DNA of 64,000 nucleotides from Anaerolineales bacterium (GTDB lineage Bacteria > Chloroflexota > Anaerolineae > Anaerolineales > E44-bin32). The notes beneath the pieces were generated by a model. That model saw nothing but the letters and a program-made list of their open reading frames with translations. It had not been told where the DNA came from and searched no databases. Position 1 is the first letter of the stretch. Every line of letters starts with the position of its first letter. The stretch spans positions 9,785 to 73,784 of the forward strand of contig DATEVL010000038.1 in the NCBI GenBank assembly GCA_035281845.1, read 5' to 3'. Below are positions 29,743 through 48,198 of the stretch, piece by piece. The position numbers were made by a program, and so were the translations under genes.

Positions 29743-30803
29743 GAAGCGATGATGCCGCCTCCCAGGCAGACCTCGCCGCGGAAGAAGACGGCGGACTGGC
29801 CCGGGGTCACATCGGGAAGGGGTCGGTCCAAATCCACCTCGGTGCCGCCGTCGGGTAGCAGCTTGACCTGGCAGCCGACCTGTCGAGCTCGGTAGCGCAC
29901 TTGAACCTCGGCCTTGGAGGAGTCTTGGAGAGGCTCCCCGGACACCCAGTTGACCGGCAGCGTGCGAAATGCGTTGCGGCCCAAGCTCTGGCGCGGCCCC
30001 ACCACAAGGGTGTTGGCCGTCACGTCTTTGGCCAGGACATACAACGGCTCGTTCGACGCCAAGCCGAGCCCGCGTCTCTGACCGATGGTGTAAGCCGCCA
30101 GACCGCTATGCTCGCCGACGGCGTTCCCGGCCGGATCGAGGATAGGGCCAGGAGAAAGTCCGTCGCCACCATTCCGCTGGAGAAAGGATCGGTAGTCCTC
30201 CCCGGCGAGGAAGCACAGGTCCTGGCTTTCCGGACGATCGGCGATCGCCAGGCCCCGCTGCCGAGCGTACGCGCGGACCTCGGGTTTTGTGAGTCCTCCC
30301 AACGGGAAGACGGCCCGAGCCAATTCGCTTTGGCCGAGTACGCTCAGGACGTAGGATTGATCCTTCTGAGGATCAATGCCGCGCAGGAGAGTGCGTTTAC
30401 CATCCCGTTCCACCACTTGTGCATAGTGGCCAGTCGCCAAGAAGCTGGCTCCGAGACTCATCGCGTCGGCGAGCAACCTCGTCCAACGGATGTAGCGATT
30501 GCATTCGATGCAGGGGTTGGGCGTTAACCCTTGCGCATAGCCATTAAGAAAGACCGCGACGACGTGCTCCTTGAACGCGGCTTTCATGTCGAGAACGTAG
30601 AAAGGTATGTCCAGGCTGGCCGCCACGCTTCTGGCACCGGCGACGTCGGCGGGGGAACAACAGCGGTTGACTCGCCCGTCTTCGACCCACAGGCGCATCA
30701 TCACGCCGAAAACATCCGCACCTTGATCGACCAACAGGGCTGCGGCAACAGAGCTGTCCACGCCGCCGCTCATCGCGACGGCGACCTTGCCTGGCAGGGT
30801 CAT
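29739..30803 (-). CDS. mnmA: tRNA 2-thiouridine(34) synthase
   Basis: PP-loop VAVAMSGGVDSSVAAALL and overall MnmA layout. Confidence 0.9.
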   Translation of the reverse strand: MTLPGKVAVAMSGGVDSSVAAALLVDQGADVFGVMMRLWVEDGRVNRCCSPADVAGARSVAASLDIPFYVLDMKAAFKEHVVAVFLNGYAQGLTPNPCIECNRYIRWTRLLADAMSLGASFLATGHYAQVVERDGKRTLLRGIDPQKDQSYVLSVLGQSELARAVFPLGGLTKPEVRAYARQRGLAIADRPESQDLCFLAGEDYRSFLQRNGGDGLSPGPILDPAGNAVGEHSGLAAYTIGQRRGLGLASNEPLYVLAKDVTANTLVVGPRQSLGRNAFRTLPVNWVSGEPLQDSSKAEVQVRYRARQVGCQVKLLPDGGTEVDLDRPLPDVTPGQSAVFFRGEVCLGGGIIAS

Positions 30804-31972
30804 CCGGCCGCCAGCGCGACTCGGCGTTGCGCTTCGACAAGACGAGGAAGCACATCGAGGAATTCGCCGATGTCGGCCTCCGTCGTAGGGCGGCCGACCG
30901 TGACGCGCAAAGATCCCAGCGCCAGGGAAGGGTCGAGACCGAGAGCGAGCAACACCGACGACGGTTCGGGATCGCCCGTCTTGCAGGCCGAGGCCGAGGA
31001 GCAGGCAAACCCGGCCAGATCGAGGGCGGCCAGCAATCGGTTGCCATCGACCCCGTCGAAGGCGAAGGACGCATGGTTGGGGAGGCGCGCTTCAGGGTGT
31101 CCGGTGAGGACCGCACCAGGGACGGAGGCCAGGATCGCCTCTATCAGGCGTCGACGCATCGAGAGAAATCGAGGTTCATGACGGCCACGTTCGGCGTCGG
31201 TGATCTCGAAGGCCGTGGCTAGGCCGACGATCAACGGGACGTTCTCTGTCCCTGCCCGTCGCCCGTCTTCCTGTCCGCCACCGGGCTGGATCGCGACCAG
31301 GTGGATGCCGGATCGGCAGAAGAGCGCGCCGACGCCCTTGGGCCCGTAGAACTTATGGGCGCCGATCGAAATCAAGTCGGCCCCGAGTTCGTCCGACCGT
31401 AGGTCCAGCTGGCTGGCGGCCTGGACCGCGTCGGTGTGGAGCGCGATTTCCCGCTCGCGGCAAATAGCGGCAATTTCACGGATCGGATTCACCGTGCCGA
31501 TCTCGTTGTTGCCATGGATCACCGAAACGAGCGCCGTCTCGCTCCGAAGGGCGCGCCGCACCGAGTCCGGATCGACGCGGCCGAAGCGGTCGACCGGAAG
31601 CAGCTCGATCTCGAAGGCGTGGTAGCGCTCCAGGTAGCGGCAGGCGTTGAGAATGGCCGGATGCTCGACCGGTGAGGTTAGAACGTGCCGCGCTCCGCGC
31701 TCGGCTTGCGCCGCCAGGGCCGCGCCGCGGACGGCGAGGTTGTCGCTCTCGGTCCCGCCGCTGGTGAAGATGATCTCCGAGGAGGCGCATCCGAGGACGG
31801 CACCGACGCGCGTCCTCGCCAGTTCGAGCGCGGCCTGGGCCTCCTGGCCGAAGCCGTGGATGCTGGAGGGGTTGCCGAACCCCGGGCGGAAGTGAGGCAG
31901 CATGGCCTGGATCACCCGCTCGTCGACAGGCGTGCTGGCGGCGTAATCCAGATAGACGCGGGCCGAGGCCAT
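30800..31972 (-). CDS. Cysteine desulfurase (NifS/IscS class V aminotransferase)
   Basis: YLDYAASTP...FTSGGTESDN...HKFYGPKG...SSASAC motifs. The stop overlaps the mnmA start. Confidence 0.9.
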   Translation of the reverse strand: MASARVYLDYAASTPVDERVIQAMLPHFRPGFGNPSSIHGFGQEAQAALELARTRVGAVLGCASSEIIFTSGGTESDNLAVRGAALAAQAERGARHVLTSPVEHPAILNACRYLERYHAFEIELLPVDRFGRVDPDSVRRALRSETALVSVIHGNNEIGTVNPIREIAAICREREIALHTDAVQAASQLDLRSDELGADLISIGAHKFYGPKGVGALFCRSGIHLVAIQPGGGQEDGRRAGTENVPLIVGLATAFEITDAERGRHEPRFLSMRRRLIEAILASVPGAVLTGHPEARLPNHASFAFDGVDGNRLLAALDLAGFACSSASACKTGDPEPSSVLLALGLDPSLALGSLRVTVGRPTTEADIGEFLDVLPRLVEAQRRVALAAG

Positions 31973-33453: not shown

Positions 33454-33942
33454 TCAGGCCCCGGTCGGCAGCGCTTGCTCCGCCGGGGTTTCCGCTCGGA
33501 CAGGCTGCGCAGGCGTGCCGCAATACGGGCACAGGTTCCACGGGAGATCAAGCAGTCGCCCGCAGCGGACGCACGCCTTCCGCAGACGAGTATGGCAATG
33601 CGGGCAGATTTGCCACTCGCGGTCGGCCCGGCGACTGCAACCCGGGCACGTCGCTTGCTCCTCGATCCCGACCAGCAACGCCTCTTCCTCCAGCGCCCGC
33701 TCGTATTCCTCTTCGAGGGTCAGCCTCGGCCGTAGGACGAGGTAGACGATGACCCCCGGCAGACTGAGGAGCAGTACCAGCAAGGGGGCCAGGACGCGCA
33801 AGAAGCGGTCGTTCGAGCGGGCGCGGATGTCGCGCCAGGTCCAGAAGGCGAGGCTCAGCCACAGGGCGACCAGGAAGGCCCCGAAGGCGGCCGAAAAGTA
33901 GAGAAACAAACCTCCAAGGCTTTCCAAGCCGAGATTGGGCAT
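33454..33942 (-). CDS. Membrane protein with PLD_nuc_N-like TM hairpin and C-terminal double zinc ribbon (162 aa)
   Basis: WTWRDIRARS...LLSLPGVIVYLVLRP, followed by CPGC...CPHC...CVRC...CPYC. Start MPNLG with TGcTATAAT 10 nt upstream. Confidence 0.65.
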   Translation of the reverse strand: MPNLGLESLGGLFLYFSAAFGAFLVALWLSLAFWTWRDIRARSNDRFLRVLAPLLVLLLSLPGVIVYLVLRPRLTLEEEYERALEEEALLVGIEEQATCPGCSRRADREWQICPHCHTRLRKACVRCGRLLDLPWNLCPYCGTPAQPVRAETPAEQALPTGA

Positions 33943-42208: not shown

Positions 42209-42234
42209 GGAAAAGACGCCCCGGTGGGCGTCTT
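42209..42234 (-). terminator. Intrinsic terminator after tRNA-His
   Basis: Minus-strand AGACGCCC-ACCG-GGGCGTCT followed by TTTTCC. Confidence 0.7.
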
Positions 42235-42239
42235 GTTAG

Positions 42240-42312
42240 GGTGGGCGACGGGTTTCGAACCCGCAACCTTCCGGTCCACAGCCGGACGCTCTGCCATTGA
42301 GCTACGCCCACC
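42240..42312 (-). tRNA. tRNA-His (anticodon GUG) with encoded G-1, no encoded CCA
   Basis: Hand fold of the minus strand: G-1, acceptor GTGGGCG/CGCCCAC, D arm GCTC-AATGGC-AGAGC, anticodon stem TCCGG/CCGGA with loop CTGTGGA, T arm GCGGG-TTCGAAA-CCCGT, discriminator C. Confidence 0.9.
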
Positions 42313-42462: not shown

Positions 42463-43737
42463 TCAAGAGTCCTTCGCGAGCAGAGCGCTAACGCGCGCCA
42501 GCAGCTCGTTCCGGGCGATCGACTCTTGCGAGCCGTCGCGCAGGTCCTTGAGGGCGAGCTCGCCGCGCTCGATCTCGCGGGAGCCGATGATCAGCGCCAG
42601 AGGGATGCCTTGTCGATCGGCGTACTTGAGCTGGCGAGGCAGACGGTCCGGGGCCGGATACCATTCCGCGGACCAACCGGCCCGGCGCAGATCGCTGGAG
42701 GCGCGTAGCGATTCGAGTCGGGCCGCTTCGTCGACCCAGCACACGAGGACCTGGGCCGGAGGCCGAGGTGTGCCGGGTGCGACGCCAACCTGTTCGATCA
42801 GCAAACCGATGGTGATGTCGCCCATCGCGAAGCCGGTGCCGGGCAGCCGATCGCCGCCGACGTCGGACACCAGGTTGTCGTAGCGGCCTCCGCCCAGGAT
42901 CGCGCGAAAGCGACCGTCGGGATCGCGGGCTTCGAACACCGTGCCGGTGTAGTAATCGAGCCCGCGGACGATGGTCGGGTCGAACCGCAGATACTCCGCG
43001 CAGCCGAGCGCCTCGGCCGCCTCGAAGAAGGTTCGCAGCTCGGGCGACTCCTTCCAGCCGTCGGGATCCTCCAGAAGGCGAGATAGCCCGGCGACCGAGG
43101 GGCGGGGTAGGCCCAGCTCTTCCCCGTAGGCCAGCCACTCGCTCGACGACATCTTATCCCGTCGATCGACCAACCGGAAAGCAGCCGGCAGTTGCTGGCG
43201 GCCGATCCCGAGGGAAAGATACTTCCCTTCCGCCAACCCCCGGTTGTTGACGAGCAGCCCGATCTTATCCGGCCCGAGACCGACGGCGCGAAATAACGCC
43301 ACGGCAATGGCGGCAATTTCGGCGTCGGCCTCGGCCGACTCGACGCCTAAGAGGTCGATATTCCATTGGAAGAACTCGCGCGAGCGGCCTTTCTGCGGCT
43401 TCTCATAGCGCCAGATCGGACCGAAGGACCACCAGCGGATCGGCCGCGGCAGGCTGTTGCTCCGGGCAGCGACCATGCGAGCCAGCGACGGGGTTAGCTC
43501 CGGGCGTAACGCGATCTCGTCCCCACCCTTGTCGCGGAAGACGTAGGCCTGTTCTTTCACGAGCTCGTCGCCGGACTTGGCCGCGTACAGCTCGAGCCGT
43601 TCCAGGAACGGCGCTTCGTATTCGCGGTAACCGAACGATTGTGAGATCTGCCGCACCTTGTCGTAGAGCCAGTTGCGGAAGGCCATCGCCTCCGGATAGA
43701 AGTCGCGGGTCCCTTTGACGGGCGGAATGGCGGGCAT
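42463..43737 (-). CDS. hisS: Histidine--tRNA ligase (424 aa)
   Basis: PVKGTRDFYPEAMAFRNWL...YREYEAPFLE...LRPELTPS...GGGRYDNL motifs. Start at MPAIPP (ATG 43737). Confidence 0.9.
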   Translation of the reverse strand: MPAIPPVKGTRDFYPEAMAFRNWLYDKVRQISQSFGYREYEAPFLERLELYAAKSGDELVKEQAYVFRDKGGDEIALRPELTPSLARMVAARSNSLPRPIRWWSFGPIWRYEKPQKGRSREFFQWNIDLLGVESAEADAEIAAIAVALFRAVGLGPDKIGLLVNNRGLAEGKYLSLGIGRQQLPAAFRLVDRRDKMSSSEWLAYGEELGLPRPSVAGLSRLLEDPDGWKESPELRTFFEAAEALGCAEYLRFDPTIVRGLDYYTGTVFEARDPDGRFRAILGGGRYDNLVSDVGGDRLPGTGFAMGDITIGLLIEQVGVAPGTPRPPAQVLVCWVDEAARLESLRASSDLRRAGWSAEWYPAPDRLPRQLKYADRQGIPLALIIGSREIERGELALKDLRDGSQESIARNELLARVSALLAKDS

Positions 43738-43755
43738 CTGTTCGACTCCAGGAAT

Positions 43756-43781
43756 GAAAAACGGCGGGGTGCCCCGCCGCC
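43756..43781 (-). terminator. Intrinsic terminator inside the hisS leader (attenuator candidate)
   Basis: Minus-strand GGCGGG-GCAC-CCCGCC followed by GTTTTTC, ending 19 nt before the hisS ATG. Confidence 0.55.
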
Positions 43782-43809
43782 GACTCAAATGCTCGGGCGC
43801 TCTGCGAGG

Positions 43810-43860
43810 CTACTCCCCGGGATCACCGGAAGACGCGTGATGGACGGATCCTTGCTTCAT
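43810..43860 (-). other. 16-codon leader mini-ORF MKQGSVHHASSGDPGE* with tandem His codons (CAT CAC)
   Basis: The ATG lies 9 nt downstream of the extended -10 TGcTATACT (43870-43878). His codons at 43840-43845. Stop TAG at 43810-43812. Confidence 0.3.
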
Positions 43861-43869
43861 TCCGTCCAG

Positions 43870-43878
43870 AGTATAGCA
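43870..43878 (-). promoter_or_regulatory. Extended -10 TGcTATACT for the hisS leader
   Basis: Minus-strand reading cgTGcTATACTctggacggaATG. Confidence 0.45.
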
Positions 43879-43948
43879 CGGGCCCCGACAGGAACCCCTG
43901 CCTCGCGGCTTGGGCCGGGGCCACGCCGCGCGGTCTCGGCCCGCGGGG

Positions 43949-45493
43949 CTAGGCCGAAGGCAGCCAATCGTCGCGGCGAATCAGCCGCACCAGCGACGCC
44001 AGGTGCGGAGTCAGGATGGTGTCGCCCTCGACCAACGGCACCTGCTCGCGGACTTGCGCCAGAATCGCCTTCACGCCGGCGCCGGGGGACCGCGCCGGCT
44101 CGGCGCGATGCCGAAGGTCGAGCGCCTGAGCCGCCGCCAACAACTCGATGGCGACGATCTGTTCGACGTGGCCGATGACTTGCCCGAGCTCTCTCGCAGC
44201 GCTGGTGGCGTTGGCGTTGTGATCCTCTTGGTCGGCCGACGTGGGAAGCGACCGGACGCTGGCCGGAGACGCCAGACCCTGGTTCTCCAGAACGAGTGAA
44301 GCCGCCGTGTACTGCAGCATCATCAGACCCGATTCCAGCCCGGCGCGCTGCGGCCTTGCCACCAACATCGGCGGCAGGCCGGCGTTGGTATGGCCGGAGA
44401 GCAGACGGAAGACACGGCGCTCGGAAAGCGCTCCGATCTCGGCGGCAGCGATCTTCAGGTAGTCATTGATCAGACCGACGGGCTCGCCGTGGAAGTTGCC
44501 TCCGGAAACGGGCGTGTCCCCGAAGAAGAGAGGGTTGTCGGTCGCCGAGTTCACTTCGCGCACCGCGACTTGTTCAGCGAAGCCCAGAATTTCCCATGCC
44601 GGCCCGATGACCTGCGGGATGCAGCGCAGGCTGTAGGCGTCCTGCACTTGATCGCCCGAATCCACCAGTCGGCTGCCAGCCGTGAGCTGTCGCAGCCGTA
44701 ATGCGACGCGCTGTTGCCCAGGGTGGGGGCGGGCAGCGTGCAGGCGCTCGTCGAGCGCGCCCGAGGCGCCGAGGAGAGCCTCGAACGACATCGCCGCGGC
44801 CGCTTCAGCAGCGGCCAACAGACGTTTCAGGTCGCCGCACGACAACGCCAACAGGCCCGCGGCGAAGGTCGCTCCATTCGTCAGCGCCAGGCCGTCCTTC
44901 GGACCGAGGCGGACCGGTGCGAGTCGAGCCCGACGGACGGCTTCCCTGAGGGGAAGCGAAGTGTCGCCGAGCCAGCCCTCCGGCTCGTCCGGCACAAGAT
45001 CCGGCGCCATGAGAGCCAGCGCCAGATGCGCCAACGGTGCCAAGTCCCCCGACGATCCGAGCGACCCTTGGGACGGTATCGGAGGCGTGACGCCGGCATT
45101 GAGCATTTCCAGAAGCGCCGCCACCGGCCCAAGGCCGACCCCCGAGAGCCCCAGCGCCAGAGTGTTGGCGCGCACCAGCATGGCCGCGCGCGTGACGTCG
45201 CGGGCGAATGGCGCGCCAAGACCGACGGCGTGGCTCAGAATCAAGTTGCGTGACAGGTCGGAGAGATCGGCGGCATCGACTCGTTGATTGGCGAAGATGC
45301 CGTATCCGGTGTTGACCCCATAAACGGGACCGTCGCCCTGCGCCAGACGGGCCACGACACGTGCCGACTCTTCGACGGCTTCTCGAGCGCTTGGCTGGAG
45401 CGACACCGTCGCGCCGCGACGGGCGACGGCCTCGATGGAACCAAGGCTAAGGGAGCGGCCGTCCAGTTCAACCGATTCGGTCTGCAGGGGCAT
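43949..45493 (-). CDS. hutH: Histidine ammonia-lyase-like aromatic amino acid lyase (MIO family)
   Basis: GVNTGYGIFA, NLILSHAVG, GSLGSSGDLAPLAH (Ser-Ser-Gly where HAL usually has Ala-Ser-Gly), QDAYSLRC, NFHGEP. Confidence 0.75.
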   Translation of the reverse strand: MPLQTESVELDGRSLSLGSIEAVARRGATVSLQPSAREAVEESARVVARLAQGDGPVYGVNTGYGIFANQRVDAADLSDLSRNLILSHAVGLGAPFARDVTRAAMLVRANTLALGLSGVGLGPVAALLEMLNAGVTPPIPSQGSLGSSGDLAPLAHLALALMAPDLVPDEPEGWLGDTSLPLREAVRRARLAPVRLGPKDGLALTNGATFAAGLLALSCGDLKRLLAAAEAAAAMSFEALLGASGALDERLHAARPHPGQQRVALRLRQLTAGSRLVDSGDQVQDAYSLRCIPQVIGPAWEILGFAEQVAVREVNSATDNPLFFGDTPVSGGNFHGEPVGLINDYLKIAAAEIGALSERRVFRLLSGHTNAGLPPMLVARPQRAGLESGLMMLQYTAASLVLENQGLASPASVRSLPTSADQEDHNANATSAARELGQVIGHVEQIVAIELLAAAQALDLRHRAEPARSPGAGVKAILAQVREQVPLVEGDTILTPHLASLVRLIRRDDWLPSA

Positions 45494-45547
45494 GAAGGAG
45501 CGTGGTCCGCACGGGGCGCGGGCGATTCCTGCGGATTATACCAACCA

Positions 45548-48140: not shown

Positions 48141-48198
48141 CGCTTGCGGCCAGACGGCGCGAGTATAGCACGCCGTCCGTCGGGAAAGGACACGGGCG

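Follow-up and report, generated by a model that had tools for sequence, protein, structure and literature searches.

The hisS leader and its locus

The 64,000-nucleotide (nt) stretch of contig DATEVL010000038.1 from an Anaerolineales bacterium (hereafter, the window) encodes a histidyl-tRNA synthetase, hisS, and the spacer upstream of this gene is the subject of the present analysis. The spacer separates hisS from hutH and measures 210 nt. Reading of the sequence places a complete leader within it, composed of a promoter, a mini open reading frame (ORF) with two adjacent His codons and an intrinsic terminator. The leader, hisS, hutH and the tRNA-His gene behind hisS all lie on the minus strand; coordinates are positions in the window. 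From the promoter to hisS, the features are as follows.

43870–43878, minus strand: extended −10 promoter TGcTATACT, with the −10 hexamer TATACT at 43875–43870 (sequence)
43861–43869, minus strand: 9-nt spacing between the promoter and the leader ATG, which is at 43860 (sequence)
43842–43867, minus strand: 5′ hairpin, GGACGG/14-nt loop containing AUG/CCGUCC (sequence; minimum free energy, MFE, fold)
43810–43860, minus strand: leader mini-ORF of 16 codons plus TAG (43812–43810), encoding MKQGSVHHASSGDPGE (sequence)
43837–43842, minus strand: candidate regulatory codons His7 (CAT, 43842–43840) and His8 (CAC, 43839–43837) (sequence, conservation)
43815–43827, minus strand: region 1, GGUGAUCCCGGGG, codons 12–15, predicted to pair with region 2 in the terminating conformation (MFE and centroid structures)
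43796–43810, minus strand: region 2, the predicted 5′ strand of the antiterminator, consisting of GCCUCGC (43810–43804), AGAG and CGCC (43799–43796) (duplex and MFE prediction)
43757–43781, minus strand: intrinsic terminator, with region 3, GGCGGCGGG(G), at 43781–43772, loop GCAC, region 4, CCCGCCGUU, at 43768–43760 and the T-run at 43761–43757 (terminator scans)
42463–43737, minus strand: hisS, histidine–tRNA ligase, 424 amino acids (Pfam tRNA-synt_His and HGTP_anticodon; NCBIfam TIGR00442)

The promoter, the 9-nt spacing, the mini-ORF, the 5′ hairpin, the terminator and a 19-nt gap before hisS had all been described in an original prediction made from the letters of the sequence, and our analysis found every one of them in place. 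The arms of the 5′ hairpin occupy 43867–43862 (GGACGG) and 43847–43842 (CCGTCC), so that the last base of the 3′ arm is also the first base of the His7 codon. Region 2 begins at the G of the UAG stop codon. The terminator stem (43781–43760; GGCGGCGGG/GCAC/CCCGCCGTT) comprises nine pairs, seven of them G–C, according to the terminator scan, and lies 28 nt from the stop codon. The 19 nt between the T-run and the hisS ATG (43737) leave no room for a hisS promoter, and hisS would therefore depend on read-through of the terminator. The Shine-Dalgarno sequence of hisS (GGAG, 43749–43746) is situated eight bases upstream of the ATG and outside the terminator hairpin. The hisS product matches TIGR00442 with 346.7 bits, well above the cut-off of 286.75.

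Our promoter call is based on the extended −10 element together with its conservation in relatives. Judged by this element, transcription would start at about 43863–43861, that is, 0–3 nt ahead of the leader ATG. The absence of a T-box, as originally predicted, was borne out by Rfam: at the gathering threshold the whole window yielded tRNAs only, and at E ≤ 10 the leader spacer matched neither the T-box nor any other family.

Other parts of the window provide a background for these features. A strict scan of both strands of the 64 kb returned just three strong hairpin-plus-T-run terminators, which suggests that canonical intrinsic terminators are rare in this genome:

1017–1044, plus strand: strong terminator
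28359–28329, minus strand: strong terminator
hisS leader, minus strand: the terminator described above

For an adjacent His pair within a 16-codon ORF at 65.6% GC, we estimate from the GC content a chance probability of about 0.01. The promoter word TGCTATA[AC]T has five exact copies in the window versus about 0.2 expected by our own estimate. Related words are found 11 nt ahead of tRNA-Asp and 6–10 nt ahead of the ATG of two long minus-strand ORFs (31972 and 33942). The excess of the promoter word and its tight spacing to ATGs suggest that the organism uses extended −10 promoters and leaderless mRNAs. Taken by itself, the window makes the case for the leader just suggestive; it is the conservation in relatives that makes the arrangement appear non-random.

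The two long ORFs are worth describing individually. The one at 30800–31972 (minus strand, 390 amino acids) opens with TGTTAGAAT, followed by 6 nt and the ATG, and looks leaderless. So does the one at 33942 (minus strand), where TGCTATAAT is followed by 10 nt and the ATG, and whose product resembles, by sequence, a hydrophobic membrane protein. Exact copies of TGCTATA[AC]T at 48170 (minus), 51796 (plus) and 40031 (minus) have no ATG within about 60 nt and possibly mark the starts of long 5′ leaders or of non-coding RNAs. For the copy at 48170, a Ser/Thr kinase gene is found about 500 nt downstream.

Conservation of the leader in close relatives

When genome and metagenome collections were searched with HisRS, all matches came from Chloroflexota, class Anaerolineae, the best being 68% and 75% identical. 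Closer loci, with 74–95% HisRS identity, were obtained through a protein search followed by contig look-ups. Alignment of the hisS upstream regions of relatives, a check proposed with the original prediction, turned out in its favor: the leader arrangement, including the mini-ORF, His at codon 8 and the terminator, is kept in eight of the nine closest hisS loci, L162 being the exception. The close-clade set discussed below consists of nine sequences, namely, the window and loci L161, L163, L164, L165, L166, L167, L168 and L081. Their leader peptides are the following.

Window: MKQGSVHHASSGDPGE
L161: MKQGSVHHAFSGGPGE
L163: MELRFSVHTLTGKPVP
L168: MKYTTDLHVHFLRPRS
L167: MGSRADSHHAHEHLRV
L164: MDRRSDLHPTDHALRV
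L165: MDRRSDLHPTDHRLRV
L081: MDQRSDLHPLHHPLRV
L166: MTDSQGDHPVPDPERV

The promoter word TGnTATACT is invariant in all nine sequences, and in seven relatives the distance from the −10 element to the ATG is 8–9 nt. In L166 the 16-codon frame exists only with a GTG start, 40 nt past the −10 element and in the same frame. In the eight sequences that start with ATG, the ORF is exactly 16 codons long, without a single indel from start to stop, whereas the spacer behind the ORF does contain indels. Throughout the close clade, a C[CU][CU]CGC-like box (CCUCGC or CUCCGC) comes after the stop codon, and the terminators are found about 20 nt ahead of hisS.

The peptide itself is highly variable. Only two residues, Met1 and His8, are invariant in the nine sequences, and His8 is encoded by CAC in five of them and by CAT in four. 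An invariant His8 specified by both synonymous codons, a fixed frame and length and a variable peptide together point to selection acting on the meaning of the codon, the frame and the length, and not on the peptide. Such a pattern of sequence conservation is characteristic of leader ORFs that act as sensors.

The comparison with the closest relative, L161 (95% HisRS identity), is in line with this pattern. By eye, none of the five differences between the two leaders affects a His codon, the GCCUCGC or CGCC box or the terminator 5′ arm; one, a change of GAT to GGT, is located in an extended region 1. The 5′ hairpin is identical in L161, and it differs in the other relatives (e.g., GAUGGA:UCCAUC in L164 and L165).

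The terminator and a predicted antiterminator pairing

We evaluated the pairing of the terminator in an alignment of 25 sequences. In this alignment, 81.6% of cells pair, six pairs change on both sides and the covariation score was reached by none of the 500 shuffles. Within the close clade, six core pairs of the terminator are invariant, and the consensus fold contains two helices only, the terminator and a small hairpin across the stop codon.

The original prediction had noted that no antiterminator could be seen by eye. That gap is now filled by a candidate, in which GCCUCGC (43810–43804) pairs with GCGGGGC (43777–43771) and CGCC (43799–43796) with GGCG (43781–43778), that is, region 2 with the terminator 5′ arm. 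The predicted duplex of 7 + 4 bp has an energy of −19.8 kcal/mol (z = −2.1 versus shuffles), and it is the MFE structure of a transcript ending just before the terminator 3′ arm. The MAFFT alignment of the close clade mis-registers the GGC-repeat arm of the terminator, and the antiterminator was instead read sequence by sequence. Read this way, the subclades differ in having CCUCGC:GCGGGG or CUCCGC:GCGGAG, including one compensatory exchange of C–G for U–A. In the 25-sequence alignment, 81.3% of antiterminator cells pair, compared with 32–45% for slid partners.

The location of region 2 is also informative. We searched 55 leaders for the segment that pairs best with the terminator 5′ arm; measured from the stop codon's first base, this segment begins at a distance of 0–3 nt in 73% of them, compared with 29% in shuffles. 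Such a stop-adjacent region 2 is, as far as sequence positions tell, within reach of a ribosome terminating at the leader stop codon. When the region 2:3 duplex is compared with shuffles across the family, the z-scores are modest (mean −0.94), as GC-rich strands pair promiscuously; where the box lies with respect to the stop codon is more telling. In the subgroup with 'GLG*' leaders, we found no convincing antiterminator by eye; there, a conserved UUUGGGCUGA box overlaps the stop codon.

The wider family in Anaerolineae

Beyond the close clade, a terminator is present upstream of hisS in about 60 of 160 more distant loci, and nearly all of these have a His-containing mini-ORF. To avoid bias, we defined ORFs in the terminator-bearing loci without regard to their His content, as TGnTAnnnT followed by 4–12 nt and ATG, which gave 36 distinct ORFs. 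His accounts for 17.7% of the residues in these ORFs, while the other two-codon amino acids, namely, Asn, Asp, Gln, Tyr, Cys, Lys, Glu and Phe, account for 1–3.4%. In the distant loci, His runs extend up to HHHHHHH, with up to nine His codons per leader. Four examples, L046 being the His-richest relative, are given here.

L046: MKTNVAVHARHHHHHHHDGFFGLG
L025: MNFTLFHAHHHHHHHDGHFRLG
L040: MKTITGAPIHHHHHTHHLMS
L014: MKAGSTHHTRDASAHHLVGIMRA

The −10 element and the ATG are 6–10 nt apart in the 36 promoter-defined leaders. This range, like the 9 nt observed in the window, fits a 5′ leader of 0–3 nt. These distances are in line with the originally proposed leaderless start, and two ordinary genes of the window are spaced alike. 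A few family members start farther from the promoter, and at least one of them (L099) has AGGAG ahead of its ATG.

A covariance model built from the 25-sequence alignment, which did not include the window's clade, found the window leader (43824–43753) as the best full-length match in the window (17.2 bits, E 0.003), tied by a bare hairpin elsewhere in the window. The same model also matches members of the close clade and other subgroups. This provides modest sequence evidence for common descent of the family members, as opposed to convergence. Rfam searches of 12 relatives detected no T-box; at E ≤ 10, two His-rich relatives gave chance-level matches and, in L046, a sub-threshold match to His_leader.

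Whether all these observations amount to a single family with a common function is, in our estimate, an evenly balanced question. The proposal is that uncultured Anaerolineae widely carry near-leaderless His-leader transcription attenuators that form a family not described so far, present at about one third of sampled hisS loci and absent from cultured Anaerolinea. These would control the canonical HisRS and possibly the tRNA-His that follows it and, in the window's clade, would rely for sensing on one invariant codon, His8, within an ORF fixed at 16 codons.

Some loci deviate from the common layout. In L003 and L004 (HisRS 61% identical), hisS is preceded by a TGCTATA[AC]T promoter and by a GC hairpin, but no ATG-started His ORF is recognizable, and L004 has no U-run; these loci may have degenerate leaders or leaders of another type. 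In the His-richest subgroup (L023, L025, L030 and L046), the gap of 50–115 nt between the terminator and hisS is filled by long, species-specific palindromes that look like inserted REP-like repeat elements. For one of these palindromes (L046, 3905–3945), Rfam reports a microRNA-like hairpin on each strand.

A model for histidine-dependent attenuation

In our assessment, it is quite probable that the leader is a near-leaderless, ribosome-mediated transcription attenuator of hisS that senses charged tRNA-His. A His-codon-dependent attenuator combined with leaderless translation was also the essence of the original prediction, and the layout conserved in relatives argues for it. What the data show are the sequence elements themselves and their conservation, the enrichment in His, the covariation of the terminator and a region 2 that lies right at the stop codon.

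In the proposed model, transcription would start a few bases past TGcTATACT, leaving the 5′ end of the mRNA within about 3 nt of the leader AUG, and translation would begin without a Shine-Dalgarno sequence. When His-tRNA-His is plentiful, the ribosome would reach the UAG, and its footprint would mask region 2 (GCCUCGC...CGCC) and region 1. With region 2 masked, the 3:4 hairpin with its U-run would form, and RNA polymerase would stop 19 nt before hisS. When His-tRNA-His is scarce, the ribosome would stall with His7 or His8 in the decoding site, 27–30 nt upstream of the stop codon, leaving region 2 free. The front edge of the stalled ribosome would reach the base of the 1:2 stem, and region 2 would pair with the terminator 5′ arm (7 + 4 bp). 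Once this antiterminator has formed, the polymerase would continue into hisS and possibly into the tRNA-His behind it, such that synthetase expression would go up when charged tRNA is low. It is from the sequence that we infer where transcription starts, that the ORF is translated, that ribosomes stall on it and that read-through depends on His.

Predicted folds allowed us to examine how the position of the ribosome may affect the choice between the two structures. In the terminating conformation, region 1 (GGUGAUCCCGGGG) is predicted to pair with region 2 (CCUCGCAGAGCGCC) across the stop codon, with regions 3 and 4 forming the terminator. The computed probability of the terminator in the window is 0.82 for the free RNA and 0.88–0.90 with a ribosome at the stop codon. 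With His8 in the A site, it drops to 0.62, 0.25 and 0.06 as the mask is extended to +10, +12 and +14 nt, respectively. At 12–14 nt, the base of the 1:2 stem is predicted to open and the fold to move to 2:3 plus 1:4. With His7 in the A site, the terminator is still favored in these predictions, and codons 8–10 are the ribosome positions that most favor the antiterminator. Prior to synthesis of the 3′ arm, the 5′ arm in the window is predicted to be about 100% paired except with a ribosome on codons 14 to stop.

The geometry differs across the family. In the sister subclade, the extra His codons are at positions 9–13, within the sensitive zone directly upstream of region 1, and in the subgroups with VGI-type and GLG-type leaders, region 1, by eye, adjoins the His run or lies inside it. 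Judging by sequence, many members of the family conform clearly to the classical trp/his geometry, to which the window leader conforms only marginally. The copy in the window thus appears to be a minimal version, and L163 and L166, having a single His, appear more minimal still.

Evidence against the model and alternative explanations

A number of results weigh against the attenuator model. In the window, the leader has two His codons, and in L163 and L166 it has a single one. L162 (86% HisRS identity), L001, the cultured Anaerolinea L032 and L070 have no leader at all, hisS being close behind the promoter; the absence from L162, L001 and cultured Anaerolinea indicates that the element is lineage-specific and dispensable. 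A two-hexamer promoter scan made no call at the leader site, where there is no −35 element. The antiterminator shows only two pairs that change on both sides, which is not above shuffles, and the antiterminator structure tested in the 25-sequence alignment was derived from one of the aligned sequences; what supports the antiterminator is conserved complementarity. The effect of His8 on the fold hinges on the assumed ribosome footprint, the His codons being about 12 nt upstream of region 1. Equilibrium folding across the family had the terminator dominating nearly everywhere, without a difference between ribosomes at His and at the stop codon (Wilcoxon p = 0.14), and pairing of the 5′ arm before synthesis of the 3′ arm did not discriminate between them either (p = 0.27), being clean only for the window and L161. 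Thus, of the alternative RNA folds that the original prediction had suggested computing, those of the window do show a switch upon a His8 stall at +12 to +14 nt, but there is no separation across the family. We did not use the two family-wide analyses of ribosome position as family-level evidence. Dominance of the terminator at equilibrium would be expected if the decision is kinetic, as under our model it would have to be, and we therefore infer the mechanism rather than derive it from the folds.

Several alternatives to the attenuator model deserve consideration. The main one is that the element has a His-sensing ancestry but has decayed into a constitutive partial terminator or a general sensor of leader translation. 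Decay would account for the low number of His codons in the window's subclade (1–2, compared with 2–4 in the sister subclade and up to nine elsewhere), for the predicted folds in which a His7 stall leaves the terminator favored and a His8 stall is borderline, and for the outright loss of the leader in L162 and L001. What decay does not readily explain is His8, which remains invariant, as CAC or CAT, in nine sequences that otherwise differ almost everywhere; without selection on codon meaning, this is hard to understand. The 16-codon length and the stop-adjacent box have been kept as well. We consider a decayed or non-specific attenuator unlikely, though with a real chance of being correct. Another explanation holds that the promoter-to-terminator unit is a small gene in its own right, producing a transcript of about 105 nt (a small RNA or the message for a 16-residue peptide), with hisS expressed by incidental read-through. 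The unit is indeed complete, and the 5′ hairpin and several other helices are predicted in it. Yet it is always directly upstream of hisS, the intervening 19 nt offer no space for a separate hisS promoter, the peptide is not conserved apart from His, the fold is not more stable than those of shuffled sequences and Rfam has no match. This makes an independent gene improbable in our view.

Regulation of hisS could also do without a ribosome, if CAY served as a tRNA-His specifier in a T-box-like manner or if HisRS bound the leader, as in E. coli thrS. The alternation of CAC and CAU is compatible with pairing to a GUG anticodon too, and in Firmicutes hisS is commonly under T-box control (PMC2965389). 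However, neither the window leader at E ≤ 10 nor the 12 relatives searched have a T-box match, a UGGG acceptor-binding bulge was not found by eye and the leader is only about 105 nt long. Furthermore, up to seven in-frame His codons, the conserved ATG and stop, the fixed length and an ATG tied to the −10 element are signatures of translation, and we rate a ribosome-independent riboregulator as very improbable. Finally, the promoter-like word, the short ORF and the hairpin might have come together by chance. Hairpins and short ORFs are common in GC-rich DNA, the surrounding 4 kb contain terminator-like sites in numbers not above those of shuffles (three observed, 2.2 expected) and the fold of the whole leader is not more stable than its shuffles (z = +0.56); the last of these results belongs among those that speak against the attenuator as well. 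Chance juxtaposition is nevertheless effectively refuted by the comparative data, since the entire arrangement is conserved over dozens of divergent genomes.

Genomic neighborhood

The leader is flanked by further genes related to histidine, and hutH, the His leader, hisS and tRNA-His form a cluster. Its outer members are listed below.

43949–45493, minus strand: hutH, histidine ammonia-lyase, histidine breakdown (Pfam Lyase_aromatic; NCBIfam NF006871 above cut-off)
42239–42311, minus strand: tRNA-His (GTG), 151 nt after hisS (ARAGORN, Rfam)

The hutH gene is directly upstream of the hisS leader, and this neighborhood is kept in L081, L164–L168 and L001. It has its own TGGTATAAT at 45543. Between hutH and the leader promoter there is no U-run terminator, just a GC-rich palindrome near 43906–43928.

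On the other side, a terminator follows tRNA-His at 42234–42211. A tRNA-His gene is present after hisS in almost all of 44 relatives, regardless of whether they have the leader. The gap is sometimes as short as 15–40 nt, and tRNA-Arg is often next. By their arrangement, hisS and tRNA-His possibly belong to one transcription unit. In the window, two GC hairpins lie in the gap between them, as does what may be a separate promoter, TGGCATACT (42334–42326), and in view of this promoter co-transcription here is no more than a possibility.

Comparison with known systems

The leader of the his operon in Salmonella and E. coli, hisL (RF00514), has seven consecutive His codons, whereas the window leader has two. 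The two are alike in that a leader peptide with His codons is followed by alternative terminator and antiterminator hairpins, the antiterminator of the window being a predicted one. In contrast, hisL is led by a Shine-Dalgarno sequence and controls a biosynthetic operon, while the window leader is apparently leaderless and precedes a synthetase gene, in Chloroflexota. In the his operon, ribosome stalling at low His-tRNA-His selects between the terminator and antiterminator hairpins (PMC9413887). We also tested the leaders for membership in RF00514 itself: the window has no match at E ≤ 10, and L046 reaches 15.2 bits (E 3.6) versus a gathering score of 49, so that this assignment was rejected.

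Attenuation of a synthetase gene by a leader peptide has a precedent in the E. coli pheST operon, whose Shine-Dalgarno-led leader (pheM) contains the cognate codons. Both leaders act, or would act, on aminoacyl-tRNA synthetase genes, but the amino acid, the phylum and the sequence differ, homology having been compared by the general Rfam search alone.

T-boxes sense uncharged tRNA directly, without a ribosome, by means of a 200–300-nt leader with Stem I, a specifier loop and the T-box sequence. The hisS T-box of Firmicutes (RF00230) has the same gene, the same signal (tRNA-His charging) and the same terminator/antiterminator output in common with our model. As a candidate assignment for the window leader, RF00230 was rejected: there was no match at the gathering threshold or at E ≤ 10, and T-box features are absent from the leader.

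In the Bacillus cereus group, a His leader peptide and a premature terminator were predicted upstream of hisZ and of a hisS paralog (Naville & Gautheret 2010, PMC2965389; PMC9413887). Those leaders concern a paralog and a regulatory subunit in Firmicutes, and a leaderless start is not among their features; the window gene, in contrast, is a canonical HisRS scoring above the TIGR00442 cut-off. The term 'Chloroflex' does not occur in the text of PMC2965389.

Leaderless sensing ORFs are known from Actinobacteria. Leaderless leader peptides were described in Corynebacterium (PMC3890552), and leaderless polycysteine short ORFs of mycobacteria are reported to act translationally, by unmasking a sequestered ribosome-binding site (Canestrari et al., bioRxiv 10.1101/834739). 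The likeness to the window would consist in a sensing ORF at the 5′ end of the transcript and in control of downstream genes through stalling on the codons of one amino acid. The mycobacterial type differs in its output, which in the window would be an intrinsic terminator with a U-run, the Shine-Dalgarno sequence of hisS not being sequestered, and also in amino acid, gene and phylum.

Our full-text literature searches, whose coverage was partial so that a prior description is possible, found no hisS leader described in Chloroflexi, and the leader family is probably undescribed. The novelty claimed in the original prediction was too broad, given the His leaders predicted in the group of Bacillus cereus (PMC2965389) and the leaderless attenuator ORFs of mycobacteria (bioRxiv 10.1101/834739).

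If our model is correct, the leader would represent a compact natural sensor of His-tRNA, whose variants with one or two codons could show the minimum number of regulatory codons. The family also provides sequence-level evidence for extended −10 promoters, leaderless translation, transcription–translation coupling and intrinsic terminators in mostly uncultured bacteria. Genome annotation may benefit as well, as such mini-ORFs and terminators are currently missed by Rfam and gene callers. No existing concept is overturned by these findings. Instead, classical leader-peptide attenuation, best known in Proteobacteria and Actinobacteria, would be extended to Chloroflexota and to a canonical synthetase gene.

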